From Gammaproteobacteria bacterium (GTDB taxonomy: Bacteria; Pseudomonadota; Gammaproteobacteria; Steroidobacterales; SZUA-146), in NCBI GenBank assembly GCA_045107075.1, contig JBGCFV010000047.1:17351-81350 (forward strand): a DNA stretch of 64,000 bases, in the 5' to 3' direction. This document shows positions 6,609 through 52,150 of this stretch, one piece after another. The notes under the pieces were generated by a model, which was not told the DNA's origin, did no database searches, and saw only the letters and a program-made list of their open reading frames with translations. The position numbers were made by a program, and so were the translations under genes. Each line of letters opens with the position of its first letter. The stretch's first letter is position 1.

Positions 6609-9600
6609 TTAAGTCCCACAACTCGTGTTGAGTGCGCTTGGACCAGGCGGGTTCAAGAAACGCGACTGGAACGGCGCAATGTCGATAAAGTTAACCACAC
6701 CGTCGCCATTGATATCTGTATCAAGATCACCGGTAGACAGGAAGTCTCCGGTGAGTATCGCAAGGTCAACGAAGTTGACGATGCAGTCGTTGCTGAAGTC
6801 AAAATCGCACACGTTGCCGATACCGTCACCGTTTGAGTCACGTTGATCAGCGTTTGCGTCTAACTGACAGTTGTCGAGCGTGTCAGTGATACCGTCTGAA
6901 TCATTGTCCCCTACCGTTAACCACTCAAAGCTAACCGATGTTTGTAAGCCGCTTGACCCGGTAGTGGCGGTAAGAGTGACTGTATACGTACCACCAAGAC
7001 CCGCGGTGGCACCCGATATAACGCCTGTGTTTGCGTTGATGCTCAGGCCCGCTGGTAAACCGTCAGCGACGTATGAAATGGCGCCCGAGTTGTTGTCGCG
7101 AGCTGTAACCGCGACATTAACCACATCGCCCACGTTGTTTTGCTGCGTACCCGGGTTCAGCACGTACGGCGGGAAGTTTCCATTGGGCGCGGAAGCGGCC
7201 GGCTCGCTATCGTCAATTTGCAACAGATAGCTGGCCAGGTTATCGAGGTCGCTGGCGCCGAGACTTGTGACGTCTATGCCAACCGTAGCCTCGTTAGTGT
7301 GAGCGAGTATGGCTTGTTGCACGGTGGCTGCTGAACCGTCGTGCAGGTAAGGCGCACCGTGCCAGAGTCCGCGCAGCGTTGGTGTATCAAGCCCCCCATC
7401 CACCAACGGCGTTCCGAGGCGCCCACCTGTATCGGCGTCAACGGTTCCAACATTGTGGAAGAATCCGCCCAATGGGCTGTCGGTGAACTCGCTGTTCGCG
7501 TGGCAACGACTACAGTTAGAACTCGCGAACAACGCTTGTCCGGCCTGACCGTCTGTGGTCAGGTTGCCATTGCTGGCTCGATTTGGGCTGTCGCCCACCG
7601 AGTTCAGCGTAGCCGTGTAGCCAGCCAGAGCGTCTAGGTCGACGTTCAAACCACTCTTCGGCACACCCAGCGTGTCAGATGTCAGGGCAAAGTCCGCGTT
7701 GGAAAGCAAGCCTGTACCATCGAATACGCCACGAATGTCGTTTTCGAAATCGTGAATCTCGTCGAAGTTAGCCGTCCAGTGTACGTTGCCGTGAGCAATA
7801 CCACCGCGACCACGCAGGTCGATAGTGTTGCGCAAGCCTTCGCCGCCGTCGGAGAAATCCCACGTGCGACCATCGTGACCTGCATCGTCGTGACACGTAG
7901 CGCACGAGATATATGCTTGAGAACTCAGACGTGAATCAAACGCATCGAAGAACAGCTTCTTACCGGTCAGCACAAACGGGTTGAGCGTTTCGGCGACAAC
8001 GGTCGCTACTTCGGCATCCAGCGAAATGCTGTTTTCGATACCCTGCATTAAATTGCTGGCATCGTAGACTCCGACCGTGCGGTCAAGATAGTTATGCACG
8101 TACAGAAGCTCACCGTCAGGCGACAGCGCAATACCGCGCGGCGCAGTTCCGGCTGTTCGCGTCACAATAATTTGATTGGCGTATACGTCGAGCACGTGAA
8201 TGGAACGACTGCCCTCGTGAACCACGTACAAGTGGTTTCCGTTTGGACCAAACAGAGCCGCCGTGGGCTGGCTGTTGTCGTCGAAGTCAAAGCGTTCTTC
8301 TACCAACTCCTGCTGAGCCGTCATGTCCAGACGCGCCAGCAGACTTCTGACCAAGCGGTCGTGCTCGCGAGGGTTTCCGTCGCGGAACGAACCGCGATAG
8401 ATGTTGCTGATGTTGGAAGGCACAACGCCTACGGTTGCGTCCGGAGATAAAGCGGCACCCATTACGTAGTTTGGAACACCTCGCGATGAATCCTGCGTAT
8501 CAATTTCATCGTTGTACGCCAGCACCATCGTATTCAGAACGGTCATACCGCCGGTATCCACTCTCGCCACTTCACCACCGCCACCGGTCGTTACGTTACG
8601 AGTGCTTTCGCCGGGAACCGGAGCCGTAATAAAGCGCGACACATACAGCTCGCTGCCGTCGGCGTTGAGCGCCAAATCGCGAGGTCTGAAATCAAGTGCG
8701 AGCGAAGAGTCAATCTGGTTCAGTGCCAGATTAATTTTGACGACACGTTGCTCGGCGAGCAGAGAGACGTAGGCAGCCGTGCCGTCGCTGTTAACCACAA
8801 TCGAATGCGGGCTGGCACCGTAGTCGAACGACATCACCGTCGAGACTGCGAACGTGTTTGTATTGATTTCGGAGATAGAGTGCGAATCGCGGTTAATTGC
8901 CCACAGCGTGTTGACATCAATTTGAGCAATACGCGTTGGATTATCTCCTACACTGATTTCCTGCAAGAACAACTTATTTGGAACGTTAATGGCCGTAACC
9001 GAATCGTTGTCAGTGTTTACAGTCCAAACCAAATCGTCAGCACCTGCACGCTCTTGATACAAAATAGTGCTGGATGAAACGGGCTTCGTTGCCGATAACG
9101 GTGCATGCACGTTCTGGAAGAAAATAAACTGATCAGAGCCAACCGTGTCGGTCAGCGTAACCGTAACCTGGTAGCGGCCAGGTTCTGCAAAGGTATACTC
9201 GAGCGTAGGATCGGTGCCGGTAAACTCTTTACCACCATCACTAATACTCCACGAGAACTCGGGGGCTACCCCACCTGTGACAGTGACTTCCATTGTGCCA
9301 GCAACGCCCGCTTCGAGAGTAACCGGGACAATTCCACTGAATTCAACAATCGCTGGTGCTGCGTCGTTAATGTAAATTGCGTAACGACCTTCGTGAGCGA
9401 AAACCAAATCCTGGTTACCGTCAATGTTAACGTCGGTAATCACAACGTCGTAGGATTCTTCTACTCGCCACTCCGGGTCCGCAAAGACGTCAAAGTTGCC
9501 TGAGAAATTGCCCGTGGTGATAACCATTTCATTCAATTCATTCCGCGGATCTGGATTCAAACCCGTACCCAGCATTTCAATACTGGACATGATGTAGTCA

Positions 9601-10601
9601 GGGTCACCATCGTTGTCGAGGTCACGTATAAACGCAAAGCCGTGCTTGCCGTTGTCACCAATCATGTCAGGGTCAAGTCGTTTCAGGTAGTCGACGAACC
9701 CACCGGTCATGGTTCCTTCGCTTATAAACGCCGTTGGACTGAAGTTGTCGGCATAGACTCGCATGTCAATCATGTTGTCGCCGTTAAAATCGGCGCCAAC
9801 AGGCATGTAGGTCAGGTTGTCGAGGTCGAGGTTCTGTATTCCGGAGTTTGGAAAGTTGCCGTTGCCGTCATTGTAGAATATTGACTGCACGTTCTCTGAG
9901 CCGGCGATACCAATAATGTCCACATCTCCGTCATTTTCAATATCAGCGAGCTGGATCTTGCCCACCGAGTCGAGCACGTTAGAGCCAAGGCGACCGGTGG
10001 TTTCATTCGTAAACACGCCGCTGCCATTGTTGACCAGGTAGTTGCGACTACCGTTTGAACGCAACAGGATAAAATCCATGTCTTCGTCACCGTCCAGGTC
10101 GGCTGACTCAACCATCGTCACACGGCTTGACGCAACGCTTACCGTAGTGCCGCCGTCAAAACCCAACCAGTTGCCGTTACCGTCATCACCGTTGTTCAAA
10201 TAAAGTGCGGGACGTTCGTCGACTCGACCAAAAAACAAATCGCTCCAGCCGTCGCTATTGACGTCGACAATTTCAACGTCGTAGCTGTTACTGCCGAGCC
10301 CCGTGCCGCCAAACAGCGCAGCGCTATTGGTAAGCACTCCGTTTAGATTGAGAAACAGTCGCGGCACGTCACCACGGCGAGCGACAACAATGTCCTCAAT
10401 GCCGTCGTTGTTCACATCACCAAGCGCGAGCTTTTTAACGCGGGTATCACTAACGGACACGCCGGCCAGATCAAGGTGATTTGTAGTGCGTTCATCGAAC
10501 ACCGGTTCGGCGAAAACACTTACGGACAAAGCCAGCCCTGTAAGACCCAACAACAAACGTTCGCGCGCGCGAGTGAATCGGCGAGAATCTTTATACGTCA
10601 T
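6609..10601 (-). CDS. giant exported mosaic protein: FG-GAP/VCBS repeats, PKD, beta-propeller repeats, di-haem cytochrome c peroxidase-like domain, Ig-like domain, TSP3/dockerin-like C-terminal cassette
   Basis: Signal peptide (..LSVSVFAEP). Repeated Ca-loop motifs: DVNNDGIEDIVV, DVNSDGWSDLFF, DLDGDEDMDFIL, DIENDGDVDIIG, DLDNDGDPDYIM, DVNIDGNQDLVF. PKD-like YTFAEPGRYQVTVTLTD. Propeller-like repeats: GNHLYVVHEGSRSIHVLD and DGELLYVHNYLDRTVGVYD. Two CxxCH haem sites (CATCH at 7890-7904, CSRCH at 7510-7524) plus PYLHDGS, as in CCP/MauG enzymes. GLPAGLSINANTGVISG is Ig-like. The C-terminus is DNDSDGITDTLDNC..DSNGDGIGNVCD..DINGDGVVNFIDIAPFQSRFLNPPGPS. Confidence 0.85.
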   Translation of the reverse strand: MTYKDSRRFTRARERLLLGLTGLALSVSVFAEPVFDERTTNHLDLAGVSVSDTRVKKLALGDVNNDGIEDIVVARRGDVPRLFLNLNGVLTNSAALFGGTGLGSNSYDVEIVDVNSDGWSDLFFGRVDERPALYLNNGDDGNGNWLGFDGGTTVSVASSRVTMVESADLDGDEDMDFILLRSNGSRNYLVNNGSGVFTNETTGRLGSNVLDSVGKIQLADIENDGDVDIIGIAGSENVQSIFYNDGNGNFPNSGIQNLDLDNLTYMPVGADFNGDNMIDMRVYADNFSPTAFISEGTMTGGFVDYLKRLDPDMIGDNGKHGFAFIRDLDNDGDPDYIMSSIEMLGTGLNPDPRNELNEMVITTGNFSGNFDVFADPEWRVEESYDVVITDVNIDGNQDLVFAHEGRYAIYINDAAPAIVEFSGIVPVTLEAGVAGTMEVTVTGGVAPEFSWSISDGGKEFTGTDPTLEYTFAEPGRYQVTVTLTDTVGSDQFIFFQNVHAPLSATKPVSSSTILYQERAGADDLVWTVNTDNDSVTAINVPNKLFLQEISVGDNPTRIAQIDVNTLWAINRDSHSISEINTNTFAVSTVMSFDYGASPHSIVVNSDGTAAYVSLLAEQRVVKINLALNQIDSSLALDFRPRDLALNADGSELYVSRFITAPVPGESTRNVTTGGGGEVARVDTGGMTVLNTMVLAYNDEIDTQDSSRGVPNYVMGAALSPDATVGVVPSNISNIYRGSFRDGNPREHDRLVRSLLARLDMTAQQELVEERFDFDDNSQPTAALFGPNGNHLYVVHEGSRSIHVLDVYANQIIVTRTAGTAPRGIALSPDGELLYVHNYLDRTVGVYDASNLMQGIENSISLDAEVATVVAETLNPFVLTGKKLFFDAFDSRLSSQAYISCATCHDDAGHDGRTWDFSDGGEGLRNTIDLRGRGGIAHGNVHWTANFDEIHDFENDIRGVFDGTGLLSNADFALTSDTLGVPKSGLNVDLDALAGYTATLNSVGDSPNRASNGNLTTDGQAGQALFASSNCSRCHANSEFTDSPLGGFFHNVGTVDADTGGRLGTPLVDGGLDTPTLRGLWHGAPYLHDGSAATVQQAILAHTNEATVGIDVTSLGASDLDNLASYLLQIDDSEPAASAPNGNFPPYVLNPGTQQNNVGDVVNVAVTARDNNSGAISYVADGLPAGLSINANTGVISGATAGLGGTYTVTLTATTGSSGLQTSVSFEWLTVGDNDSDGITDTLDNCQLDANADQRDSNGDGIGNVCDFDFSNDCIVNFVDLAILTGDFLSTGDLDTDINGDGVVNFIDIAPFQSRFLNPPGPSALNTSCGT

Positions 10602-10911
10602 GACAACCTCTTATCCACGATTTAATGCCCCATGCCAGTACTCCGGCTTAAACAAGTCTGACGCCTGTTGTTTTTTTCGTGTGACGTTCGAGACCCGACT
10701 ACCCCTAACTCTAGCAAAAAATGCCGGCCCACCTTCTGAATGGTCGGTTTTTCAGCACATTACGTAGATTGACTTTGGTTATACCAACCGTACCGACCAG
10801 CCGATTCGTGTGGCGCAAAACCAAGACAAAGGCTGCAATGGTCTCGATCGCCCTTTATACCTGCAAAACCTTGCAGCTATGCCGCCAAAAATGAATGTTT
10901 TCCAAACAAAT

Positions 10912-10934
10912 ACAGCCGCCCCAAGGGCGGCTGT
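10912..10934. terminator. bidirectional hairpin terminator candidate downstream of sppA
   Basis: ACAGCCGCCC (10912-10921) pairs with GGGCGGCTGT (10925-10934). Both flanks are T/A-rich (TATTTCGTTT on plus, ATTTGTTTGG on minus). Confidence 0.45.
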
Positions 10935-11044
10935 TATTTCGTTTGGAATGTTCTCGTGCTATACAAAACAACAGGCTGTTGCTGGACAACGCAAAGCACC
11001 TTGTATCACAGGCCCTGACCGAGCCGACCTCAGCCGGACATGAA

Positions 11045-12898: not shown

Positions 12899-12930
12899 TC
12901 AAACCTCTCAGGCCGACAGCGTGCTGCCAG

Positions 12931-15709: not shown

Positions 15710-15710
15710 A

Positions 15711-26350: not shown

Positions 26351-27214
26351 TCAGAAACCCGCACTCGGACCAGGCGGCATAAAAAACAGCTCGCTCATCA
26401 CCAAAAAGTCGACAAAGTTAACCACACCGTCACTGTTAAAATCAGCGACCTCGTCGTTAGATAAGAAGAGCATTGAGAACTGACTCAAGTCGATAAAGTT
26501 AACTATTTTATCGCCGTTCAAGTCTGGGTCACAGGCGTTACCAAACCCGTCAAAGTCGGCGTCCTCTTGACCCGGATTGGCTGCTAGCGTGCAATTGTCA
26601 GATGAGTCGGGTACCGCATCTCCGTCTGCATCAGCTTCGACAATATCTTGACAGGTAATCGGCTGAGATCCGCCGCTGTTAATTTGGCAAATCACTTTAT
26701 CGCCCGCGCTACTGGTCAGGTAAGCAAACGCAAGATTCACCCCGACTCGCGAAGGCTGGCCTGATGTTTCCATCCACGTAAAGTTACTACTGGTTGCGAC
26801 CAGCGGATCAGCAAACTAGCTTTCATTCCTGTCCACCACTACCTGAGTAAACCCCGGTCCAAATAGTGTATTGAAATCGGTAAGATCAGGCACACCGGAC
26901 GTAAAAAGATAAATGGGAATATCCGGCGTGCCCGTTTCAAACACCAGCTGGGAATCCCAGGTGGCTGGGTCAAAAATCGCGGACGTCCAACCGGTCAGAC
27001 CTGTATCAGAACTGTTTGCCGCTGAATTAATGTGTCCCCACGCTGCCATCCGCCAAATAGCTCCAGGCGGCACAGGTGGCTGATTGATGGTAACTGTGTA
27101 GATACCACCGTCACCGTCCAGAATAGGCACTTCAGTGACATAAACGTCGGGAAGACTACCTGCGTAACCGCTCGATGCGAACAGGCACAATAAAATACTG
27201 GCTATTTTCTTCAT
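26351..27214 (-). pseudogene. secreted TSP3/dockerin-cassette protein gene interrupted by one in-frame TAG
   Basis: ORFs 26816-27214 (signal peptide MKKIASILLCLFASSGYAGS) and 26351-26773 (cassette ending FFMPPGPSAGF) are in the same frame. The span is 864 nt, or 288 codons. The only interruption is TAG at 26816-26818. The 14 intervening codons (FADPLVATSSNFTW) are open. Confidence 0.55.
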
Positions 27215-31921: not shown

Positions 31922-32524
31922 ATGCCTGAATCAGGAAACAATTCAAATTCTTCTGATCGTTTTTTAGTGTACGAGAACGAGGATCCGGTTACATCCACAG
32001 ATGACAAAGCCCTTTATCGTGAGCTTCATCGCATCGCCGCTTATCTGATGTCCGCCGAACAAGCCGGTCACACTTTGCAGCCAACCGCTCTAATTAATGA
32101 AGCCTGGCTTCGCTTAAATCAGAGTAACTCCATAGAAACTGAAAATCGGCAGCACTTTGTTGCGGCTGCAGCGTTGCAAATGCGCCACGCGCTGGTTGAT
32201 CATGCACGTCGAAAGAACGCCGCCAAACGTCCATCTCGTGGACTTCGACTATCTCTCAATCAATACGAAAGCAGCGACGAAATCACTTTCAGCAACCAAG
32301 CTACAGAGATTGTTGATATCTGCCTTGCAATAGAGAAGCTGGAAAAACGGAACGCCCGCCCTGGTCAGGTATTTGAGCTGCGTTATCTGGGTGGACTGAG
32401 TGTTCCGGATTGCGCCAACTACCTCAACGTGTCGGAACGTACCGTTAAAAGCGACTGGAAGTTCGCCAGCGCCTGGATTGCCCGACACCTTGAACTAACG
32501 CACGAGAAGCCACAGCAAAAATAA
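31922..32524 (+). CDS. ECF-type RNA polymerase sigma factor (Sigma70_ECF / TIGR02999-like)
   Basis: 200 aa. GHTLQPTALINEAWLRL is the hallmark region-2 block of this subfamily. The region-4 HTH is LRYLGGLSVPDCANYLNVSERTVKSDW. Confidence 0.8.
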   Translation: MPESGNNSNSSDRFLVYENEDPVTSTDDKALYRELHRIAAYLMSAEQAGHTLQPTALINEAWLRLNQSNSIETENRQHFVAAAALQMRHALVDHARRKNAAKRPSRGLRLSLNQYESSDEITFSNQATEIVDICLAIEKLEKRNARPGQVFELRYLGGLSVPDCANYLNVSERTVKSDWKFASAWIARHLELTHEKPQQK

Positions 32525-41111: not shown

Positions 41112-41121
41112 AGCGTGAACA

Positions 41122-41946
41122 ATGAGTCTTAAAGGGAAAATTGAACACTACGCGGTAACCGATACCGGCATGGTCCGAGACCATAACGAGGACGCCGTAG
41201 GCGCTGATATGGACATTGGTCTGCTGGTGCTCGCCGACGGCATGGGTGGCTACAACGCAGGCGAAGTAGCCAGCGGCATAGCTGTGGGCACCACTGTCGA
41301 CATCATGTCCGATTTCGTCAAACGCGAGAAACGCGACGCGACGGACGAAGAGACCGGCCTTATGCGTCAGACGGTAGCCCTGAGAGACGCTGTGGTGAGA
41401 GCCAACAAAATTATCTACCAAACCTCGAAATCGAAGTCAGAATGCGAGGGAATGGGCACAACAATTGCCGCCGCTTTATTTTACAATAACCGGATTTCGA
41501 TTGCCCATGTTGGCGACTCTCGGGTGTATCGGCTGCGCAACGGCGAGTTTAGCCAGGTAACGAAAGACCATTCGCTGCTCCGAGAGCTGGTAGATCGCGG
41601 TTTTTATTCTCCTGAAGAGGCACAAAGATCACTAAATCGTAATTATGTGACACGTGCATTGGGGATTGAACCGAAGGTTGAGGTAGAACTGACAGAGGAG
41701 ACGGCGCTGCCCGATGATGTGTATGTTTTGTGTTCAGATGGCCTGACAGATATGGTCGAAGACGAGGATATTCATTTAACTATCAGCACGTTTAATGCTA
41801 ATCTTCACACGGTAGGTCAACAGTTGGTAAGACTGTCAAACGACAACGGCGGTAAGGACAATATATCCGTGGTCGTGGCCAAAGTCGTGAAGCCTTTTGG
41901 TGAAAGTAACAAATTGCTTAGCAGACTAAGCAATATCTTTAGTTAA
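41122..41946 (+). CDS. PP2C-family Ser/Thr phosphatase (Stp1-like)
   Basis: 274 aa with the motifs NEDA, LADGMGG, GTT, HVGDSR, SDGLTD and GGKDNISVVV. Confidence 0.9.
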   Translation: MSLKGKIEHYAVTDTGMVRDHNEDAVGADMDIGLLVLADGMGGYNAGEVASGIAVGTTVDIMSDFVKREKRDATDEETGLMRQTVALRDAVVRANKIIYQTSKSKSECEGMGTTIAAALFYNNRISIAHVGDSRVYRLRNGEFSQVTKDHSLLRELVDRGFYSPEEAQRSLNRNYVTRALGIEPKVEVELTEETALPDDVYVLCSDGLTDMVEDEDIHLTISTFNANLHTVGQQLVRLSNDNGGKDNISVVVAKVVKPFGESNKLLSRLSNIFS

Positions 41947-41965
41947 TATTTATTGAGAGCAACAC

Positions 41966-42757
41966 ATGGCACGCCTAGTACTGAGCTTAGACGGACAAGT
42001 TCTTGCAGAATACAATATGCAAAAAGAACGCTATACGGTGGGTCGCCTGCCGGATAACGATGTTCGTATAGACAACCCTGCCGTCAGTGGTCATCACTCG
42101 CTGGTCATCAATATTCTGAACGACTCGTTCCTGGAAGACTTGAACAGCACCAACGGCACTTATGTTAACGGCAAGCTCGTTAAGAAACATGCGTTGCAGC
42201 ACGGCGACGTGATCACTATTGGTCACCACCAGCTGCGCTTTGTCGACGACGACAAAGAAGACTCTGACGACGACGAATTCGAAAAAACCATGATTATTCG
42301 CCCCGGTTCCCAAACCGATGCGCCGAGCATGGAAAACGTCGAAGAAGCCGTGCGGGCTGCCGGTGCAGCCCCGGACGAAGGGCCTAGCGATCAACACCGC
42401 CTGCCCTCTTTCGGTTCGGCCGCTGTTGCAAGCCCGGCTGTTAAACCACACACAGAGACCATGGCCGGGACCGGCGCCAAGGTTCTTCCGAAGGCCAAAC
42501 TACAGGTCCTGAGCGGTGCGTTTGCCGGCAAAGAACTGGTTCTGACCAAAGCGCTAACTACGCTTGGCCGACCCGGTGTACAGGTTGCTGCAATTACCCG
42601 AAGAGCCGAAGGTTACTTTGTCGTCCACGTCGATGGCGGCCCTTCAGGCAACTACCCGATTGTTAACGGTAAACCAATTGGCCCTCAGGCACGACGACTG
42701 AACGACAACGACGTGATTGAGCTGGCTGGCGTCAAGATGGGATTTTTCGAAAGCTAG
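41966..42757 (+). CDS. FHA domain protein (N-terminal FHA, acidic linker, second FHA-like C-terminal domain)
   Basis: 263 aa. N-terminal FHA: YTVGRLPDNDVRIDNPAVSGHHSLV..NSTNGTYVNGK..GDVITIG. C-terminal degenerate copy: TTLGRPG..NGKPIG..NDVIELAG. Confidence 0.8.
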   Translation: MARLVLSLDGQVLAEYNMQKERYTVGRLPDNDVRIDNPAVSGHHSLVINILNDSFLEDLNSTNGTYVNGKLVKKHALQHGDVITIGHHQLRFVDDDKEDSDDDEFEKTMIIRPGSQTDAPSMENVEEAVRAAGAAPDEGPSDQHRLPSFGSAAVASPAVKPHTETMAGTGAKVLPKAKLQVLSGAFAGKELVLTKALTTLGRPGVQVAAITRRAEGYFVVHVDGGPSGNYPIVNGKPIGPQARRLNDNDVIELAGVKMGFFES

Positions 42758-42784
42758 TCATCCTGTTAAAAGTGTCATATCGAC

Positions 42785-42820
42785 GGGCCGCGTTAGCTGT
42801 AACGCGGCCCGTTTTGGTTT
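42785..42820 (+). terminator. rho-independent terminator after the kinase/phosphatase/FHA operon
   Basis: GGGCCGCGTTA (42785-42795) pairs with TAACGCGGCCC (42800-42810) around loop GCTG. GTTTTGGTTT follows. Confidence 0.65.
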
Positions 42821-42923
42821 AGAGAGAATGTTAGTTAACCTGTCTGCAAACGGCGCTATTATCAACAATAATGAAATCAGCTTAAATTGGTCGGCTGCTG
42901 CTACCGGTATGCGCTGACCCGAC

Positions 42924-43798: not shown

Positions 43799-43799
43799 G

Positions 43800-46115
43800 T
43801 TAGTCCAGCGTTTGTGGCACACACTCTGCAATGCCGCTAGGCCCGGGTGGTTGAAACACAAGCTCCGACAAACGAGCCAGATCCAGAAAATTGACGGTCA
43901 GGTCGCCGGTTAAATCGATAACGCCATCGAGCTCAAGAAACGCTTCGCCTAACAAAAACACATCCAGAAAATTAACCGTACAGTCACCGTTGTAGTCGCC
44001 GTCACAGGCATTACCAAAGCCGTCGCCGTCGGCGTCCGTTTGATCCGGATTTGATACATCGACACAGTTATCAAGGCCATCCTGAACGTCGTCTTCATCC
44101 CGATCAGCGAGGAGCAGTGATGGGGATGCCACTGAAGACAGGTTCCCCGAACCGTTATCAAGACTGTACGCCATGGCCACATTTTCGAACTCGCAGCCTT
44201 GTGGAATCTCCGTTAGCACCAGCTTGCTGCCCGCTACCAGCTCACCGTCTACGCGAAACGCGTTAACACCGCAAATTAAAGTGATGTCCTTTAGCGTTCC
44301 TTCCAACCCCGAATCGATTTCCAGATACAGCTTGCCAGGACTGTGATAAACGTCTGTGCAAGTCGGACAAAACTGCCCTTCTGGCTGACCGTCTGTCCAA
44401 GGTGTCGCCTGCAAACCGAAGTACTGCGACTGGGGACACGGGTTGTCAATATTGGTGCCTGGCTCATAGTTCAGCACGTAGCCTGTACGACAATCGTCGA
44501 ACGCTTCCTGCGAGGTAAACATATCGAGAGCGACCGTGCTGGCTCCCGCAAATAATGAAACAAGCTCAACCTCTGATACGCCGGGCCGAACGTCGTCAGG
44601 AAGAGCGCAATTAAAATCTGGGCAAGGGCCTGCCGTTAAGCTTGTGCACACTTTATCGACTGCACCACAAATACTGATGCGGCGAACTTCGTCGGTGCAC
44701 TCGGATTGTGTTGTATTGCAAAATGCAGCGCTACGACCAAGGTCGACTCCCGAACTATAAAGCTCCTGCATAATCTGGTGCGGGCTTGCGTTGTTCGCGA
44801 TTGTCCACGCCGCGGCGGCGGCCGACGCAACCACCACGCTACCGACTGAACTACCGGTCAATATTTGCGTGGGGAATGGCGTGGCACCCTCATTTACTGG
44901 CGCTACGGCGTGGTCACCAAACGCCGTCAACCTCGGTTCACCCCCCGGCCGGGTTTCCGCTGCCGCCCCGGTTTCGTCAACGGAACTAACGGCGTAAATT
45001 AATGGCCGGTAAGAGCCTGCAATGGTTAACGGGTCGGGCGTGAAACCAAACAGGTTATTGCACATAACGGCATCAGGAGCAGTTACGTCTTCCCAGCCAC
45101 CCGGCAGTATTGGCCCAGTCATAGCCGTTGGCCCGGTGACACGGTTACCGGCTGCTGCAATCACCAGTGCGCCACGACAGGACGCGTAGTTCAGAGCGCG
45201 ATACACTGCCTGAACGGAAACCCGGCTGCTATTGATCGGGTCGTCGTCACCATAAAACGAGTCCCACCCCAAGGAAAGATTGATCACCAGCTTGTTCACG
45301 GAGGCGGCACGCCAGTTCTCGACCTCTGTATAAATAGCGGTAGCCAGCTGACCGATCGTGCCCGCATACCCCCCCTGACTTGGGTCAATGCAAAACCCCG
45401 TATTACTGCCGCACCGCTGCATCGGCAGTGCCAGCTGAGAACGCAACTGAACCGGACAAGGACCTATCGTGGGGCAAATGCTATCGCGCACAATATTAAG
45501 CAACGTAAAGCCGTGAGAGGATACTCCGGAGCCGTTACGGTCTTGATTAAACCCGGTGGGCTCGCTATCCAGAATGGAGAGACGAACGTTTTGCGGACCA
45601 ACCGGCAGCGCGCCGAATGATCCAATTTGCTCCAGAAAAAACTCGCGAAATCCCTCCCACATAAGATTGGCACTATCGCTCGCCATAGGAGCTAGCGACG
45701 CAGAGTCACGATTTAGCTGTGTCAAACATTGGTCAAAGCCTGGATCAACCGAGCACAAACGGTTGGTTAGAGGAGCCGAGTTAGGGTTGGTCACATTGCT
45801 CTCGAACACGCAGTAGTTTGACAGTCCTGTTTGAAACGGTATTTCCGCGTTGTCGAAAAGACGCTGACTGGTCCAGCCCGGAATATCGTCCGGACACGGC
45901 TGCCCGGCGGTTTGGCCTACATATCGCCACGCAGTGTCGGCCGAATTCGGCTGCAGGCAGGCATCGGTCGGCGGTGACAAATTATCGCTACTGCCACAGG
46001 TAATTGATTGCCTCGCCCGACTACTCTCTGCCTCGGCATGAGCAACAGCACTCCAACAGCACACCGTAAACATACACGTAACAAGTGTCAGTAATTGTGT
46101 GATCATCCGTTGCAT
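43800..46115 (-). CDS. exported divergent subtilase (S8-like) with TSP3/dockerin-like cassette
   Basis: Signal peptide (..WSAVAHAEA). The blocks come in subtilase order: LSILDSEP (Asp), SSHGFTLLNIV (His), GALVIAAAGN (oxyanion Asn), LTGSSVGSVVVASAAAAAW (Ser). All diverge from the PROSITE patterns. The C-terminus is DRDEDDVQDGLDNC..DADGDGFGNACD..DLTGDLTVNFLDLARLSELVFQPPGPS. AAGGAG lies 7 nt upstream of the ATG. Confidence 0.6.
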   Translation of the reverse strand: MQRMITQLLTLVTCMFTVCCWSAVAHAEAESSRARQSITCGSSDNLSPPTDACLQPNSADTAWRYVGQTAGQPCPDDIPGWTSQRLFDNAEIPFQTGLSNYCVFESNVTNPNSAPLTNRLCSVDPGFDQCLTQLNRDSASLAPMASDSANLMWEGFREFFLEQIGSFGALPVGPQNVRLSILDSEPTGFNQDRNGSGVSSHGFTLLNIVRDSICPTIGPCPVQLRSQLALPMQRCGSNTGFCIDPSQGGYAGTIGQLATAIYTEVENWRAASVNKLVINLSLGWDSFYGDDDPINSSRVSVQAVYRALNYASCRGALVIAAAGNRVTGPTAMTGPILPGGWEDVTAPDAVMCNNLFGFTPDPLTIAGSYRPLIYAVSSVDETGAAAETRPGGEPRLTAFGDHAVAPVNEGATPFPTQILTGSSVGSVVVASAAAAAWTIANNASPHQIMQELYSSGVDLGRSAAFCNTTQSECTDEVRRISICGAVDKVCTSLTAGPCPDFNCALPDDVRPGVSEVELVSLFAGASTVALDMFTSQEAFDDCRTGYVLNYEPGTNIDNPCPQSQYFGLQATPWTDGQPEGQFCPTCTDVYHSPGKLYLEIDSGLEGTLKDITLICGVNAFRVDGELVAGSKLVLTEIPQGCEFENVAMAYSLDNGSGNLSSVASPSLLLADRDEDDVQDGLDNCVDVSNPDQTDADGDGFGNACDGDYNGDCTVNFLDVFLLGEAFLELDGVIDLTGDLTVNFLDLARLSELVFQPPGPSGIAECVPQTLD

Positions 46116-46136
46116 AACTATCTCCTTAAATTCGAA

Positions 46137-48836
46137 CTACCGCGAAATTAACCGGTAAGCGGCCCAGTCTGCCTGTGGATGCGATTCGATTAACGCTATT
46201 TGTGCCAGCCGTAATGCATGCTCGGGCGCCTGACCACGGATCCAATGAGAGTAAAACTGCTCGATCACCCTATGCGCCATATCGTCACGAACCGGGCGTG
46301 AAGCCGCTAACACCTTCTGGCTTCCTGCCAGTAAAAACGCATTGGCCAGACTCATGCTTTGCGAGGCTGTGCTGGTGGCTTTGGCCGTTTCGCAACCCGA
46401 CAACACGACCAGAGGCGGTGAGTGTTCCAGCGTTAACACATCAGAAATTCCCAAGCCGGAATCTGACCCGAGTTTAAGCTCGCTTCCCCAACCGTATTCA
46501 CCGGCAAACCGTGCGTGCCCCGCAAAGTGAAAAAGATCGCTACGCTGTATGTTCTCTAGCACGCTGGAAAACTGAACCTGCTCGTCAACCAGCGTTTGAT
46601 AAGACCAGGCGAGAGAAGCGGTCAACGTATCTGCGACGTTATTTAGTTCACGACGTGCAGCGGCCAGGTCGCCGCCCGCATCGGCCACCAGTAGTGCGCG
46701 ATTACCTCGCGTTAAAGCGTTTCTTGAACTGGCAATATCCAGACCATAAACAACAGGAACCCGGGAAACCAATGGCTGACCTTTTACGCGAAGGGCATGC
46801 ACATCAATTTCGGCCATAGCGCCCGACACCAACATTCGCAACAACGGCGCCGCCGATATGTCTTCGAAGACGGTTTCAAGCAGACACTCCATTTGTTCAG
46901 ACAGGTCGGTGCGCAGACAGCTCGGCTGCGTAACCCGAAGCGTGGTGCCGTCGTGCGTGAAAAGAGCCCAGGACGTTGGCAATTTCTGAACCAGCACCAA
47001 CAGCTCATTTACTCGAGGAGGTAACAGCGACGGAGACTCAATCTCTCTAAACACATCTGCAGCACCATCTAAAATCTGTCGCAGGCGAGTCTTTCGTGTT
47101 GCGTTTTCACCGGCGAGCTCTACCAGTTCATCGGCCGGCAGCATCCACGCGGACTCCACGGCCACTTCCAACTCTTTACGCAAATCATGATACTCACCAA
47201 GCAGTTGCTCCCACTTCCGTTGAGCAGGCTGCGACAACTGCTCAACGCTGTGAGCTACATTCACGGTATTGAGTGCGCGTCTGCGGGCTTCGCGTGCGAG
47301 CGCAAATGCTTCGTCGTAGCGCTGCACATCTAATAGTAGAGCAATATGTTCATTGGTCACGTTTGAGCGTGCCGTTAGCAAAGCCTCCCTGCCTTGATCT
47401 ATCGGAATTGATGGCAAAACATCGAGCAGTAACCAGTCAGCCTCCATGTACGCGTTAAGCGCCGCCTCCCTATCGCCGGTCGCCGCATAAGTACGTGCGT
47501 GTCCTGCTAAAGCACGCCACTGGGCCTGATGAGAAAGCGTCGCTTTGGCGAGCAGCTGAAGCTCATCGTATTTTCTGTGGGCCAGCTCAAAGTCGCCACG
47601 GTCGAGTGCAATGCGAGCTTCGATGTCCAGTAGCCACAGCGCGCTACGCAGATGCATTGCGTTCGTGTCGCGGGCTTTTTCTATCCACCGCTGCGCACCA
47701 GAAAGATCGTTGGCGTGCCACCGCGCCAAGGCAAGATTGGTTCGGGTATTTATAACGACTGTTGGGCCACATTTCTTCTGAGCCAACTCATCTGCTTTGA
47801 CTAGAAGGTCGGTAGGATCCTCGGAACTCCTACCAGCCTCCAATAGCAGAAGAGCTGCCCAACCCATGTTGGTGAGCGCAAGCGAATGTTCACATGGACG
47901 TATATCGTCAGGCAGCGAACTCCAACGAGACAAATAGGCTAGTGCTTCCTGGCCACGCCCCACTCGCTGCAACTGTACGGCGAGTAACAGTTCGGCGTAC
48001 AACCGCTGCGCCGCCGTACCGGTTCGTTGCGCCTGCAAGGCGGCCTCGTTCAGCCGCGTCAGCGCTGTTCGAGTATTGCTGGTGTTGTAAGCCAGTAAAC
48101 CAAAAAAATAATTCAGGTTATACGCGCTGTCTGCATCGAAGAGCGCGGGTGCTACCGTGTCATTCAAGACCTCGCGTGCTCGCTTGAAATCGCCCTTACT
48201 CATCAGGGTGTAAACAATAACCGTTGACGTGCGCAAGGCATCAGAGTGTTTGCCAGCCTTCATGTCGGCCGCAACGGATTGCGACAGCAGCTCTTCGGCT
48301 TTAGCAATATGACCCAGTCGGCGTTGAGCCTGGCCTAGCAGTCGTAACGCGGCGCCTGCCCAGTGCGGATCAATTGACGACATCGAAGTGTTAAGCAGAA
48401 GAATAGACTCTTCAAGCTTCCCTTCCCGATTCAGTGTTCGGGCGGTTTCAAGCATCTTAGGCCGCGTATTGGACTCAAGTTTCAACGCTGCCGTGCGTAA
48501 ACCGTCGCTAAAACTCAGCGTTGAAACTCCTTTGGGAACGTCGAGTTTAAACCGGGTGCCCCCCAAAACTCTGAGCGTTGTAGCGTTTGATAGCGTAGAC
48601 AGACTCATCCTGTTGCCATCGAAGCCAAACGACACACTATCGCGCAGCCCATGCTCTACCCAGACCGTCAGTGTGCGGCTATCGTTGAGAGTACAGACGT
48701 TTTCCGCAGAAACCGAAGCGCAGCCACTGACCTCAACACGTAGCAGATTGTCGTCCGAAAAAGCCCACGGCATTGTTACAAGCCATAGACTCACTGCGAG
48801 TCTTCGGACTCCATTTTTTGTACGTAGATGACTCAT
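46137..48836 (-). CDS. exported TPR-CHAT domain protein (caspase-like protease fold)
   Basis: 899 aa. Signal-peptide-like N-terminus (RRLAVSLWLVTMPWAFSDD), a roughly 120-aa beta-rich region, then a long TPR array. The C-terminal CHAT domain has the dyad context FHFAGHARF (His codon 46515-46517) and LVVLSGCETAK (Cys codon 46392-46394). Confidence 0.8.
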   Translation of the reverse strand: MSHLRTKNGVRRLAVSLWLVTMPWAFSDDNLLRVEVSGCASVSAENVCTLNDSRTLTVWVEHGLRDSVSFGFDGNRMSLSTLSNATTLRVLGGTRFKLDVPKGVSTLSFSDGLRTAALKLESNTRPKMLETARTLNREGKLEESILLLNTSMSSIDPHWAGAALRLLGQAQRRLGHIAKAEELLSQSVAADMKAGKHSDALRTSTVIVYTLMSKGDFKRAREVLNDTVAPALFDADSAYNLNYFFGLLAYNTSNTRTALTRLNEAALQAQRTGTAAQRLYAELLLAVQLQRVGRGQEALAYLSRWSSLPDDIRPCEHSLALTNMGWAALLLLEAGRSSEDPTDLLVKADELAQKKCGPTVVINTRTNLALARWHANDLSGAQRWIEKARDTNAMHLRSALWLLDIEARIALDRGDFELAHRKYDELQLLAKATLSHQAQWRALAGHARTYAATGDREAALNAYMEADWLLLDVLPSIPIDQGREALLTARSNVTNEHIALLLDVQRYDEAFALAREARRRALNTVNVAHSVEQLSQPAQRKWEQLLGEYHDLRKELEVAVESAWMLPADELVELAGENATRKTRLRQILDGAADVFREIESPSLLPPRVNELLVLVQKLPTSWALFTHDGTTLRVTQPSCLRTDLSEQMECLLETVFEDISAAPLLRMLVSGAMAEIDVHALRVKGQPLVSRVPVVYGLDIASSRNALTRGNRALLVADAGGDLAAARRELNNVADTLTASLAWSYQTLVDEQVQFSSVLENIQRSDLFHFAGHARFAGEYGWGSELKLGSDSGLGISDVLTLEHSPPLVVLSGCETAKATSTASQSMSLANAFLLAGSQKVLAASRPVRDDMAHRVIEQFYSHWIRGQAPEHALRLAQIALIESHPQADWAAYRLISR

Positions 48837-48923
48837 CGGGGATACATAAGTGGTCTTATGACGTTGGATATAGAGGCATACGCAGGTAGCGACCGTAATC
48901 TGACACGAACACGCATTTCACTG

Positions 48924-49751
48924 TCATGGCACCACCCGCACCGGCACGCGCCACGCCTGCCAATCGGAACCGACAACGACTTCTTTTTTCTCTAGTGTCT
49001 CAAAAAGCTGGCCAAGTTCAGGCAAACTTCCCTCCAAACCAATCACAACAAGCAGACTGGTAGATCCCTGGACTAGCTCCAACTCCGTTCCCAATCGACC
49101 CGTAATGCGCACCGCACCAGAGGGTGCGATACTAATAATGGCCTGCTCAGCACGCTCGAATCCGGCTGCTGTTTTTGCATAGAGCCGTGCCTCCATCGGC
49201 TGTTGTGTCGCCGTAGCTGGCACCAGTCTTAACTCCAGCCGATCACCTCCTGTAAATTCGGGCAACTCGGCCGGTGCGCCTGATCGAAACGTCGACCCAC
49301 CGAGTAACGAAAGCTCGTAGCCCGGTAGACTGCTTTGTACCGCATCGCTAAAACCGCTTTGCCCTGAACCAAACTGCCACAGGCCGAAGGCAAGCAACAC
49401 CGTTGCAGCAAACGCAATTGGAGCAAACACCTTTCGGTTTCGCGCTTCGAAGTTGACAACCTTGCTATCTGATTCAGTTTCTTGTTTGACATCTGTAGAC
49501 AGTTTGTCGATTGCGGCAAGTTCAGTCTGTATACGCTCTGAGATCTGTTGCTGAAACGACTCTCCAAGTGGTGCAAACGCGGCTTTTAACGCTGTCGCCT
49601 CTTCCGCAGTCACTGACGCCACAAGATCGGTCAGCTCCGCATCTGAAAGCGTGCCCTCAGCGTATCGCTCCCACCGCGGATCAAGCTGGTCAGCGGCTTT
49701 TTGTTTACGCGCCTCACCAGCCAAAGCTGTTAACAACGTATCGTCGTTCAT
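48924..49751 (-). CDS. single-pass membrane protein, candidate non-ZAS anti-sigma factor
   Basis: 275 aa. The start overlaps the sigma gene stop in an ATGA (49748-49751). One TM helix (VFAPIAFAATVLLAFGLWQF) separates a roughly 115-aa cytoplasmic part from a roughly 140-aa periplasmic part. It has no Cys, so no HxxxCxxC zinc motif. The function is inferred from position only. Confidence 0.45.
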   Translation of the reverse strand: MNDDTLLTALAGEARKQKAADQLDPRWERYAEGTLSDAELTDLVASVTAEEATALKAAFAPLGESFQQQISERIQTELAAIDKLSTDVKQETESDSKVVNFEARNRKVFAPIAFAATVLLAFGLWQFGSGQSGFSDAVQSSLPGYELSLLGGSTFRSGAPAELPEFTGGDRLELRLVPATATQQPMEARLYAKTAAGFERAEQAIISIAPSGAVRITGRLGTELELVQGSTSLLVVIGLEGSLPELGQLFETLEKKEVVVGSDWQAWRVPVRVVP

Positions 49752-50569
49752 CGATTTATCCTTCTCGAAACGTGCTGAATGTCCGTCTCTTCTTGCTGGA
49801 GTTCAAACTGACACTGCTTCGCCTGTTTACGCAACCGACTCCGCCACGCGTAAATTGCGTCGCTCTTAAGCCCTGTCTTGTCTTGCACTTCGGCAACACT
49901 GCACTCTTCAATATAAAGCAGTTCAAACAATTGCCACCCTTGAGGGCTCAGAGCAACGCGAAGCCGGTCCAGCAGCGTGCCCAAGTGGTCACTATGAATA
50001 ATCTGCGCTTCGACCTCTGCGCTCAGACTAACCGGCTCAGCAGCTTCTTCGAGCGCTTCGCGCTCGCGCCACGGATTGCGCTTGCCGCTACGCAAAGCTG
50101 AAATCACATGGCGTTCCGAAATTAAACCTACAAAATTCTCAAGAGACATGCCTCGATCGGCCTGCCAGCTTTTTAACTTTTTCGCACCGTCCTGAAACAG
50201 AGACAGAAATATTTCCTGGGCAAAGTCTTTTGTATCCTGACGCATATCGCGGTAGGACCCGGTACCGAGCAGTTTGCGGGCCACTCGCGCATGTATCACG
50301 GGAGTGAGCCGATTTACCAACTCACCTATCGCTCTGTGATCGCCCGATAAGGCGCGCTGTAATGTTCCTTCATTATCCGACGTCAACGACACTTCTCTAC
50401 TGGGAGAGCGACGGTCGACGCCAATCCATTTTACTCTCGCCATACCGTGACGCGATTGAATAGACATACGCGACCGTCGCGTGATGCTTCTAATAGCGTC
50501 AGTATACAATGGAACTGTGGGCTCCTCGGCGTAATTGGAAGAACGGACGACTGGGTGCTCTGACAACAT
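49748..50569 (-). CDS. ECF-like sigma-70 family sigma factor
   Basis: Region 2-like LVNRLTPVIHARVARKL..DFAQEIFLSLF and region 4 HTH LLYIEECSVAEVQDKTGLKSDAIYAWRSRLRKQ. The real start is probably internal (Met35 or Met43 of the track ORF). Confidence 0.7.
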   Translation of the reverse strand: MLSEHPVVRSSNYAEEPTVPLYTDAIRSITRRSRMSIQSRHGMARVKWIGVDRRSPSREVSLTSDNEGTLQRALSGDHRAIGELVNRLTPVIHARVARKLLGTGSYRDMRQDTKDFAQEIFLSLFQDGAKKLKSWQADRGMSLENFVGLISERHVISALRSGKRNPWREREALEEAAEPVSLSAEVEAQIIHSDHLGTLLDRLRVALSPQGWQLFELLYIEECSVAEVQDKTGLKSDAIYAWRSRLRKQAKQCQFELQQEETDIQHVSRRINR

Positions 50570-50602
50570 GATAAAGCCCTCAGACTTGTTCCAAACAGTA
50601 AC

Positions 50603-50632
50603 GGGTGCGTAAAACTAAAATGTCACGCACCC
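50603..50632. promoter_or_regulatory. perfect 8-bp inverted repeat upstream of the sigma gene (operator or leader hairpin candidate)
   Basis: GGGTGCGT (50603-50610) and ACGCACCC (50625-50632) are separated by an AT-rich 14-nt spacer. The repeat lies 34-63 nt upstream of the longest sigma ORF. Confidence 0.3.
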
Positions 50633-50746
50633 GCTCGGTTATCTTGAAATGGTTCACCTTAAAAAAGGAGTCGCTCAGAGCCTTAAGATAACTTCGAGCA
50701 ACTCCTTTTCCAAGAGCCTGTTAAAAAAACAGTTTTCAACCTGTCG

Positions 50747-52150
50747 CTACGGTGAGCACAGGTTTGGTTCAGCAGCCGGACCCGGGTTACCGAAAAAATA
50801 GGTCCGCAAGAAGAAGAGATCAAGCAGATTAACAACGCCATCTGAATTGAAATCGGCCGGAGCGTTATTCGTGAAGAAAGCGTTCCTGAATAGTGCCAGG
50901 TCAGAGAAGCTGACTTCACAGTCGTTGTCTAAATCGGTGTCACACCGGTTACCAATACCGTCTCCATCTGCATCAATCTGGTTCGGGTTGTCGACTAAAA
51001 TGCAGTTGTCGATGTTATCCGGCACACCGTCATTGTCAGTATCTTGTTGCTGAGGTGCAGCCACCGCAATCGCGTCGATATTGTCGAAAGCGTTGGCCGG
51101 CCCGTCAAGAACCACAAAACTATTTCCTGTTAAGAACGACCCGTAGAGCGTTGACGGCACCAGTCCACCTGATTCGTCAATGGTCGACACAGGATTATTA
51201 GGCTGCACGGTAAACAGCATGGCTAACGCTGGTCCCTGCGGTGTTGGTAACCAAACGAACTCAAAGCCGTCGATGTTAACGTCTGCGGGCAAACCAAAAT
51301 GCAGTGGCCGCAACGCAACTGATGGCGCTGCTGGACCTGTGAACTGATAAATATTGCCGGGGTTCAAGCCCATACGACCTTCGGTATCCACGCTAAAATA
51401 GTGCACATCGCAACCGTTAACAGGGTTACGGTCAAGCGCATCCACGTCGTCGTCGTTGATGAGACTTCCAAACGTAGGATTAGGTGACAAATCGGTATGA
51501 ACCTCAGATTCATCGCGCAACGGCCCCATTCCGAGGAGCGCTGCGGGAAAGCCCCCGCTCACGTCCAGGTTCACGCCGAATACTTCGTCCTGACCGGTAG
51601 TTGTACCATACAAAAAACCGAGTGCAGAAAGACCTTCAACCGGTATTCGCGGTGCGCCGGGAAAACCCCATCCGGCCGTGGAGTCGTCGCTGTACGACAG
51701 CGCGACGGTGCCAAACGGATACACGCAATCAATCGGCGCATTAGCTCTGAGCAGCGGTTGCGGCAACGGTGCATCAGGTGAAACATCGAGCTGATTAATA
51801 CGTGCCGAAATGGCATCGTAAGCATCGATATCGAAGAAGTTTGTGTACAGACCCGGCGTTCCAAGTGGCGCTGCCGAAGCCAGAACACCCTGTACGGGGG
51901 CGGGGTCAACGCCGCCAAACAGATCCGCGTCATCGAGTCTCGGTGCAATAGCCATAAGACTTCCTGCCACCTGACTGGAAAAATACACGTCGCCAGGATC
52001 GGCAAATTCTCCCGGATCGTTTGCCGGATCAGATATTTCCGTGTCTGACCCAATGTCCAGCGAGAACACTAATTCAGCGTCCGCGGTTGTCGGGTAAAGA
52101 GTGAGCGCCAGCACAACGGCTGCGCCTAAAGCGTTGAGTGTTCGGTCCAT
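50747..52150 (-). CDS. secreted protein of unknown function with TSP3/dockerin-like cassette
   Basis: 467 aa with a signal peptide (..[10 protein letters not shown]). The C-terminus is [53 protein letters not shown]. A hairpin plus T-tract (minus strand, about 50655-50705) separates it from the sigma gene. Confidence 0.6.
   Translation of the reverse strand: [467 protein letters not shown]

Follow-up and report, generated by a model that had tools for sequence, protein, structure and literature searches.

The 64,000-nucleotide stretch of DNA analysed here (positions 17,351 to 81,350 of contig JBGCFV010000047.1, assembly GCA_045107075.1, a gammaproteobacterium of the SZUA-146 lineage; hereafter called the window) contains five minus-strand genes that all end in the same cassette of about 95 amino acids (Table 1). 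The cassette consists of thrombospondin type 3 (TSP3) repeats, a duplicated dockerin-like segment and a conserved Pro-Gly-Pro-Ser (PGPS) motif, and it is predicted to fold as a single domain. In metagenome-assembled genomes (MAGs) of relatives, genes for this module adjoin genes for small exported proteins with a cohesin fold and a C-terminal sorting signal of the VPLPA-CTERM type. We consider it probable that the dockerin part of the cassette plugs into such envelope-anchored single-cohesin proteins and in this way tethers exoproteins to the Gram-negative cell.

The five cassettes align over about 95 residues, with 22 invariant columns and 45–52% identity to the first copy. A hidden Markov model (HMM) built from the five copies and run against all six reading frames of the window gave exactly five matches (E 4e-35 to 1e-44), all of them at the end of an open reading frame (ORF), and weaker copies were not found in this search. 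This confirms the preliminary description of this DNA, which had been made from the letters alone. The DNA of the copies is only 48–56% identical in pairwise comparison, thus they are old paralogues and not recent duplicates, as had been proposed. All five proteins have N-termini that resemble signal peptides by eye. The tails behind PGPS comprise 3–13 polar residues with a cysteine in four of the five, and neither a hydrophobic helix nor a basic tail is present at any of the five C-termini. The parts of the proteins preceding the cassette, here called passengers, are unrelated to each other: according to Pfam they are a haem mosaic, PPC-like repeats and an S8-like peptidase, and two have no Pfam match. 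In these points, too, the preliminary description was borne out.

The passenger of gene 1 (NCBI MFK8031373.1, named 'FG-GAP-like repeat-containing protein') combines FG-GAP repeats, PKD, a beta-propeller, a MauG-like di-haem peroxidase and He_PIG in the Pfam comparison, and an orthologue with 46% identity over 1162 amino acids (locus L008) retains the cassette. The cassette of gene 3 contains one TSP3 unit only, and NCBI calls this protein 'dockerin type I domain-containing protein'. For gene 4 the S8 peptidase match lies slightly under the Pfam cut-off; its orthologue in locus L036 (42% identity over 743 amino acids) has kept the cassette and is likewise preceded by a gene for a CHAT-TPR protein. 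The end of the gene 5 passenger is shared by a protein fragment (P0010) with the tail PGPAATPNLCAP. For gene 2 the cassette had been recognised correctly, but the extent of the gene had to be corrected: a gene of about 286 codons is broken by a single in-frame TAG (26816-26818), which leaves a downstream ORF of 140 amino acids (26351-26773), and the NCBI annotation covers this fragment only. Two relatives of 290 amino acids with at least 90% identity (P0394 and P0395) carry a tyrosine at the TAG position and have the same tail, so that the stop codon would be either a nonsense mutation, making gene 2 a pseudogene, or an assembly error. Selenocysteine insertion or read-through was considered and rejected, since the codon is TAG and not TGA and the relatives have tyrosine there.

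Table 1. Cassette genes and other features of the window. Cys class, cysteine in the first calcium loop and in the tail; no-Cys class, cysteine in neither.
Feature	Position	Strand	Cassette	Description
Gene 1	6609-10601	-	6612-6911	Exported mosaic protein of 1330 amino acids; Cys class; tail PPGPSALNTSCGT
Gene 2	26351-27214	-	26354-26638	About 286 amino acids: signal peptide, unknown domain, cassette; no-Cys class; tail PPGPSAGF
Gene 3	29895-31757	-	29898-30158	620 amino acids, four PPC-like repeats; cysteine in the tail (PPGPSCNSPAE), none in loop 1
Gene 4	43800-46115	-	43803-44108	771 amino acids, S8-like peptidase; Cys class; tail PPGPSGIAECVPQTLD
Gene 5	50747-52150	-	50750-51049	467 amino acids, unknown passenger; Cys class
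198-amino-acid protein	5785-6381	-		Signal peptide, unknown domain of about 150 amino acids, C-terminal KVPLPGAALLFLSALSGIRLLRGSR
Hairpin and T run	about 6570-6600	-		G+C-rich hairpin followed by T run (GCCGGCCAGCATTTGCTGGCCGGTTCTTTT)
ECF sigma factor	31922-32524	+		PF07638 type; divergent from gene 3
Ser/Thr kinase-TPR protein	32556-35255	+		Divergent from gene 3
CHASE2/phosphatase/FHA cluster	38529-42757			CHASE2-Ser/Thr kinase, PP2C phosphatase, FHA domain
TPR-CHAT protein	46137-48836	-		899 amino acids; between genes 5 and 4
275-amino-acid protein	48924-49751	-		One central hydrophobic segment; possible anti-sigma factor
Divergent ECF-type sigma factor	49748-50569	-		TIGR02937 38.9 bits, slightly under the cut-off
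Radical SAM and nuclease genes	52351-57374	-		Radical SAM protein, DUF4130/uracil-DNA-glycosylase-family protein, exonuclease fusion

A structure model of the cassette, calculated with AlphaFold (AF2) from an alignment of 125 sequences, reached a predicted local distance difference test (pLDDT) value of 96.5 over all 100 residues, with a predicted template modelling score (pTM) of 0.84. Since the confidence stays high through the last ten residues (pLDDT 91), the prediction is of a single compact domain that takes in the tail as well. The PPGPS motif, which the preliminary description could not place and had listed as an extension, is thus the last, well-ordered part of the predicted fold. In a Foldseek comparison with the PDB, residues 40–90 (approximately) of the model lie on solved dockerins and show their three-dimensional fold, the best match being 2y3n_B (root mean square deviation 1.2 Å over 51 columns, TM 0.76, probability 1.0), followed by 3kcp, 5g5d, 2b59, 2ozn and 2vn5. 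The first 40 or so residues lie on TSP3 repeats, with deviations of 0.5–1.2 Å on 2rhp and 3fby (0.5 Å over 36 columns with 47% identity for 2rhp) and of 5.0 Å on 1ux6. Comparison of the sequence profile with PDB sequences gave the same division: profile positions 3-52 match COMP and the thrombospondins (E 1e-36 to 1e-18, with COMP at 1e-36 and TSP-2 at 3e-28) and positions 38-87 about 12 solved dockerins (E 8e-5 to 5e-3). The earlier reading of TSP3 repeats followed by a double dockerin loop is therefore supported by sequence and by fold.

The dockerin part of all five window copies contains the duplicated EF-hand-like loop with the pattern D-x-[DN]-x-[DN]-G-x-[VI]-[DN]-x-x-D. In the consensus of the 125 sequences the two segments read DLNNDGxVNFxDLGxxKxxFF and DLNGDGxVNFxDLGxxKxxFF, and the model has a helix after each loop. 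The TSP3 part shows the DxDxDG/DNC...CD motif with its paired cysteines. We regard the cassette as an autonomous dockerin-type module of about 95 residues, and the canonical loop residues suggest that it binds calcium.

Both Pfam families match the window cassettes with scores that straddle their gathering thresholds. For Dockerin_1 (PF00404, threshold 22.9 bits) gene 3 (27.5 bits) and gene 2 (24.2 bits) lie above it, two copies lie under it (21.9 and 16.9 bits) and gene 1 has no match; for TSP_3 (PF02412, cut-off 25 bits) gene 2 passes with 36.7 bits and the other copies score 18–24.9. The NCBIfam model NF041540 ('GC-type dockerin', cut-off 29 bits) gave 21.6 and 17.4 bits in two window proteins, which does not reach the cut-off, and no match in the other three cassette proteins. 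Outside the window it matches protein P0027 weakly, and a protein with four modules (P0137) passes by summation with 63.2 bits. A dedicated model for the composite module of TSP3, dockerin and PGPS was not found in Pfam or NCBIfam. A separate observation concerns the model NF045500 ('Omp28-related selenoprotein'): its C-terminal 100 or so positions align with the cassette of three of the five proteins and, in a fourth, with the TSP3 part only, which suggests that the NF045500 family carries a related TSP3-dockerin module at its end.

The PGP of the terminal motif is kept in 211 of 216 aligned copies and marks the end of each module, including internal and tandem ones; the conservation of the tail in orthologues, on which the preliminary description had made its proposal depend, was found. 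Many copies have a cysteine at position 6 of the first calcium loop (the 'NDC' residue), where the others have glycine. This cysteine and one in the tail occur together in 81 copies and are both missing in 125; 10 copies have the tail cysteine only and none has the loop-1 cysteine only (Fisher p = 1e-48 over the 216 copies, a statistic that ignores their relatedness). The tail cysteine is the seventh residue after PGP in 64 of the 81 copies. Because the two cysteines covary, the simplest reading would be a disulfide that ties the tail to loop 1 in about 40% of the copies. The window copies follow this pattern: genes 1, 4 and 5 contain both cysteines, gene 2 neither and gene 3 the tail cysteine only. 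The class varies between orthologues, gene 1 belonging to the Cys class and its orthologue in L008 not.

Solved dockerins depend on contacts of residues that precede the first loop with others near the C-terminus, often proline; this 'intramolecular clasp' stabilises the calcium-bound dockerin and cohesin binding (Slutzki et al. 2013, PMC3821032). The PGPS cap and the cysteine pair of the cassette fit the same role, and by analogy F-F-x-P-G-P-S, with or without cysteine, might be the clasp of the cassette family. In contrast to the described clasp, it would consist of a conserved Pro-Gly-Pro plus, in the Cys class, a covalent disulfide.

The cassette is widespread. In a collection of 5.8 billion proteins more than 600 match the cassette profile, nearly all of them from gammaproteobacterial MAGs and either without a name or annotated as 'thrombospondin type 3 repeat-containing protein'. 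More than 170 cassette places were found in GTDB species genomes, almost all in uncultured Gammaproteobacteria, and single genomes contain many cassettes, one MAG alone contributing at least 13 loci. A profile search of a representative set was rejected as a measure of family size, because giant proteins with 15–46 TSP3 repeats dominate its counts (44,620 at E<1e-3 and 2,140 at E<1e-30); it was useful for finding four proteins with tandem modules (P0137, P0173, P0192 and P0254).

The position of the module was counted for 91 full-length copies in 79 loci from related MAGs. C-terminal copies prevail (77), nine copies are located directly behind the signal peptide of a long protein, four are internal and one is cut by a contig end. 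The enrichment at C-termini, which the preliminary description had asked to be checked, is thus present in the relatives, but the module is not confined to this position. An example of the N-terminal placement is locus L030, where the signal peptide MRTTPALIALAFGSLAAATALA is followed at once by ADTDGDG. Protein P0137 consists of a signal peptide and four tandem modules only, each of which ends with FFGPPGPS and is directly followed by the DSDADG of the next, and six and three tandem modules were found in P0173 and P0254, respectively. These three proteins and P0192 are made of, or end in, 3–6 tandem cassettes, which is unusual for dockerins, and they might be multivalent cross-linkers. Two small proteins (P0027 and P0032) have a PEP-CTERM-like tail (IPVSAP, a hydrophobic helix and RRxRA) behind the module and would be dockerins that are themselves anchored.

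Clustering of the neighbours of cassette genes revealed a family of proteins of about 190–210 amino acids that are encoded 17–311 bases from the cassette genes. They consist of a signal peptide, a cohesin-like domain and a C-terminal VP[LIV]PAA(V)W motif with a helix and an R/K tail. The family has about 60 clear members, for which NCBI has only the name 'VPLPA-CTERM sorting domain-containing protein'. Their tails pass the NCBIfam model TIGR03370 'VPLPA-CTERM' (31.4 and 27.5 against 25.35 in two members), and with Pfam Cohesin (PF00963) the family scores 19.1 and 15 bits, under the threshold of 24.1. A profile made from 57 sequences matches solved cohesins, namely 3l8q_A (E 2.7e-9), 2vn5_A (2.5e-6) and 1g1k_A (1.7e-6, over the full domain length). 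In the AlphaFold model (pLDDT 89.6) a terminal helix comes after a beta-sandwich, and the top 45 Foldseek matches in the PDB are all cohesins of types I–III, with TM 0.78–0.81 over about 148 columns and a best E value of 1.7e-10 (6kgf_C, TM 0.78). The partner family thus shows sequence homology to cohesins as well as their nine-stranded jelly-roll fold.

Nearly all members are small single-domain proteins with the VPLPA-CTERM tail as their sole other feature, and a multi-cohesin scaffoldin was not seen among the loci examined. The cohesin genes are often found in tandem, for example five in L091. Tandem arrays of 2–5 paralogous cohesin-like or small VPLPA-CTERM genes lie by cassette genes in L091:27-6595, L092:1159-2405, L086:4827-9205 and L093:4289-8299. 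One protein of 284 amino acids (L044:9446-10297) has a C-terminal cassette, and its N-terminal 180 residues weakly match the cohesin HMM (E 9e-4); judged from these matches, it may be a cohesin-dockerin adaptor. Other genes that clustered around the cassettes, a NAD-binding dehydrogenase/reductase-like fusion, an ABC transporter, a GGDEF-EAL protein and an aminotransferase, were judged to be incidental neighbours.

Starting from the cohesin genes, a scan of metagenome contigs yielded four loci, and in three of them a gene with a C-terminal cassette ends just upstream. The exact look-up of seven more cohesin proteins gave eight informative loci, six of which contain cassette genes, adjacent or within about 1 kb in five cases and at a distance of 4.5 kb in one. 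The passengers in these six loci comprise a lactonase-like beta-propeller, a Cu-oxidase-like protein, an S8 peptidase, an Ig-repeat protein and a MauG-like di-haem protein. Altogether, a cassette gene was present in 9 of the 12 informative loci, in most cases directly adjacent. Starting from the cassette genes, a cohesin gene adjoins at a distance of 20–311 bases in L022, L023, L047, L051, L055 and L060, six loci from as many MAGs. In addition, the unbiased look-up of a Cys-class protein (P0002) led to a locus in a Pseudomonadales MAG (L093) in which a cohesin gene (HMM E 1.5e-40), a C-terminal-cassette gene and an N-terminal-cassette gene follow each other; another VPLPA protein, cohesin-like but divergent, is encoded close by. 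This adjacency argues for physical binding between the cohesin-fold proteins and the cassette.

The preliminary description had seen no cohesin-like partner in the window. For the window this holds apart from one doubtful candidate, whereas in the relatives the cohesin-fold family adjoins the cassette genes. The candidate is the 198-amino-acid protein encoded 228 bases downstream of gene 1, the only window ORF that matches the broad cohesin HMM. Its C-terminus resembles a VPLPA/PEP-CTERM-type sorting signal by eye. The match to the cohesin-family HMM is weak (E 2.7e-5, 23.5 bits, positions 8-180), and hhalign gave a probability of 8% with a 3-sequence and of 36% over 43 columns with the 57-sequence cohesin alignment. 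The Cohesin and VPLPA-CTERM models of Pfam and NCBIfam did not match this protein, nor did any PDB sequence, and a search of the 5.8 billion proteins returned only the protein itself, so that it is an orphan. A terminator-like hairpin with a T run lies directly past the gene 1 stop codon, suggesting that gene 1 and the 198-amino-acid gene are separate transcripts. Size, architecture and position of the protein would be right for a divergent cohesin-type partner, which makes this role possible. The true partner of the window cassettes may be encoded elsewhere in the genome, and we infer from the relatives that the window organism uses the same kind of cohesin partner.

Several genes around the cassettes have a regulatory character. 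Divergent from gene 3 are genes for a sigma factor of the extracytoplasmic function (ECF) type and a Ser/Thr kinase-TPR protein, and the same pair was found beside cassette genes in three further loci (L011:6212-9517, L033:6391-9809 and L094:3273-6680), with a Ser/Thr kinase alone in L017, L048 and L052. These pairs look like kinase-controlled ECF regulation of exoprotein genes. From gene 5 to gene 4 (43800-52150, minus strand) the second sigma factor gene, the gene for the 275-amino-acid protein and the TPR-CHAT gene are located in between, and all five could form one operon. The order of a TPR-CHAT gene and an S8-like cassette gene is common to the window and L036. In L085 and L087, genes for TPR-CHAT and CHASE2 proteins follow the cohesin and cassette genes, the CHASE2 genes being fused to or adjoining a guanylate cyclase domain, and L085 contains DUF928 as well. 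The link to sigma factor and kinase genes pointed out in the preliminary description thus recurs modestly, and probably the sigma/kinase and CHAT genes regulate the exoprotein genes.

Amid the cassette genes of the window, genes for a CHASE2-Ser/Thr kinase, a PP2C phosphatase and an FHA-domain protein form a cluster. The surrounding genes are ordinary chromosomal ones such as ffh, rimM, trmD, htpG, a TRAP transporter, radA and ribB. The region at 52351-57374 (Table 1), which is unrelated to the cassette, includes a 745-amino-acid fusion of FAN1-HTH, VRR-NUC and an RNase T-type exonuclease, an unusual nuclease architecture.

The mechanism that we propose would work as follows. Proteins exported via their signal peptides would carry the module mostly at the C-terminus and sometimes right after the signal peptide. 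After export the module would fold around calcium ions, and this fold would be locked by the PGPS cap, in part of the copies together with the disulfide. The two near-identical loop-helix segments could then bind a small single-cohesin protein, which in turn would be fixed to the envelope or matrix by its VPLPA-CTERM signal, a signal of the PEP-CTERM class and exosortase type. As an outcome, exoenzymes such as proteases and haem peroxidases would be retained at the Gram-negative surface, where the cassette proteins would thus be located. Somewhat more tentatively, the components might belong to an undescribed Gram-negative cohesin-dockerin system of uncultured Gammaproteobacteria and some other Pseudomonadota, in which a capped TSP3-dockerin module marks a varied secretome, cohesins sorted by exosortase serve as receptors, and ECF sigma factors and kinases together with CHAT/CHASE2 proteins exert control.

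Several observations weigh against tethering by cohesins. An adjacent cohesin gene is present at only about 10% of the cassette loci, and these cassettes mostly belong to the no-Cys class, with L093 as the single Cys-class example. The window lacks a convincing cohesin, as the match of the 198-amino-acid protein is weak. The coupling of the cysteines was calculated as if the copies were unrelated, and the proposed scheme includes no route across the outer membrane. Dockerins do not usually form arrays of 4–6 modules, which would also suit a repeat with a structural or matrix-binding role. The module could thus also be a calcium-dependent structural or matrix-binding unit without any protein partner, which stabilises exoproteins in water with high calcium or sticks them to exopolysaccharide, lipopolysaccharide or particles, the neighbouring cohesins being merely co-regulated surface proteins. 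TSP3 and EF-hand loops are indeed generic calcium binders, arrays of 3–6 modules exist and most cassette loci have no cohesin next to them. We nevertheless regard such a unit as rather unlikely, since the second half of the module is specifically dockerin-like in sequence and in fold, its two loop-helix segments are near-identical as in dockerins that bind cohesin, and the only recurrent specific neighbour is a protein with a cohesin fold, which has a cassette gene beside it in three quarters of the independently retrieved loci.

If the cohesin-dockerin pairs do form, they might assemble enzymes into complexes in solution or in the periplasm, or join toxin-like partners, instead of anchoring proteins at the surface. 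Non-cellulosomal pairs that join two enzymes are known (NagH/NagJ of C. perfringens, PMC3821032), 2ozn is among the Foldseek matches, and the L044 protein combines a weak cohesin-like domain with a cassette; the predominance of small, single-domain partner proteins with a VPLPA-CTERM tail argues for an anchor, however, and renders this use improbable. Least credible of all is a C-terminal sorting or secretion signal, perhaps cleaved at PPGPS in the manner of PEP-CTERM, sortase, GlyGly-CTERM/rhombosortase or type IX C-terminal domain systems, although 85% of the copies are C-terminal with 0–13 residues after PGPS, the motif is strongly conserved and there are many copies per genome. N-terminal, internal and tandem copies, each closed by its own PGPS, and copies followed by a genuine PEP-CTERM-like tail (P0027 and P0032) show that the cassette is no terminal sorting signal read by its position. 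Furthermore, in a sorting signal a short motif precedes a transmembrane helix and a cluster of basic residues at the extreme C-terminus, and the cassette lacks the latter two; the sorting-domain models of NCBIfam did not match any of the five window proteins, and the tail of the cassette lies within a domain whose fold is predicted with high confidence, its cysteine covarying with that of loop 1. Pfam and NCBIfam models of the type IX C-terminal domain, a beta-sandwich of about 80–100 amino acids, gave no match, and the cassette model is a fold of calcium loops and helices and not a beta-sandwich. The preliminary description was thus right in excluding a PEP-CTERM, sortase or GlyGly signal. 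Of the dedicated tag for anchoring, assembly or export that it suggested, anchoring or assembly is plausible, whereas a tag bound to the C-terminus does not agree with the N-terminal, internal and tandem copies.

Tethering by cohesins would offer a concrete Gram-negative case of cohesin and dockerin, with a module of about 95 and a partner domain of about 150 amino acids with an exosortase-type anchor, and natural gene pairs such as those in L023, L090 and L093 can be cloned directly. Should the binding be confirmed, it would explain how a clade of uncultured Gammaproteobacteria retains its exoenzymes, proteases and peroxidases among them, at the cell. Thousands of proteins that are named only for their TSP3 repeats or VPLPA-CTERM domain would gain a function, and the PEP-CTERM/exosortase pathway, which is poorly understood, would be linked to enzyme display. 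For the design of protein assemblies, the compact, disulfide-stapled dockerin could moreover supply a new orthogonal pair.

Cohesin-dockerin pairing is the way in which Gram-positive anaerobes build cellulosomes; elsewhere it has mostly been a bioinformatic curiosity. With cellulosomal dockerins the cassette shares the two duplicated loop-helix segments with D-x-N-x-D-G-x-V-N-x-x-D calcium loops, and as in cellulosomes there are many dockerin proteins per genome, few small cohesin anchors and a partner with the cohesin fold. In contrast to cellulosomes, the hosts are Gram-negative, uncultured Gammaproteobacteria and the passengers are proteases, haem peroxidases, PPC or Ig repeats and unknown proteins instead of enzymes for the plant cell wall. 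The module itself differs by its N-terminal fusion to TSP3, by the PGPS cap with or without disulfide and by its possible N-terminal or tandem placement, and the partner is anchored by a VPLPA-CTERM tail and not by S-layer homology domains or sortase. The proposed system would therefore resemble the single-cohesin surface anchors OlpA and OlpC of C. thermocellum (PDB 3ul4 and 4dh2), whose role we propose for the VPLPA-CTERM cohesins, more than a cellulosome with a scaffoldin.

The first 40 or so residues share the motif DxDxDGxxDxxDNC...NPxQxDxDxDGxGxxCD with the repeats of COMP and TSP-1/2, to which they are 47–53% identical. Unlike the animal proteins, the cassette has only one or two repeats, which run directly into the dockerin calcium loop, and it lacks the long calcium 'wire' and the lectin-like C-terminal domain. 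The curated dockerin variant described by NF041540, 'GC-type dockerin domain-anchored protein', is likewise regarded as an anchoring domain, but its matches cover the generic dockerin part only (model positions 1-63 of 67). The PEP-CTERM/VPLPA-CTERM signal (TIGR03370) is borne by the cohesin partners and, by eye, by the 198-amino-acid protein, whereas the cassette has none.

In the library that was searched we found no paper that joins dockerin, cohesin and PEP-CTERM, none on the GC-type dockerin (NF041540) and none that combines dockerin, thrombospondin type 3 and Gammaproteobacteria. Cohesin-like and dockerin-like modules outside cellulosomes have been catalogued (Peer et al. 2009, as cited in PMC3821032). 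The genome paper of Saccharophagus degradans, a marine gammaproteobacterium with dockerin-like and cohesin-like modules, lists such ORFs, untested, and suggests them as possible surface anchors (PMC2386152). What is added here to the known non-cellulosomal modules is a composite module, a partner family with an exosortase-type anchor, a conserved adjacency of the two and the use of the module in many copies across a clade of MAGs.

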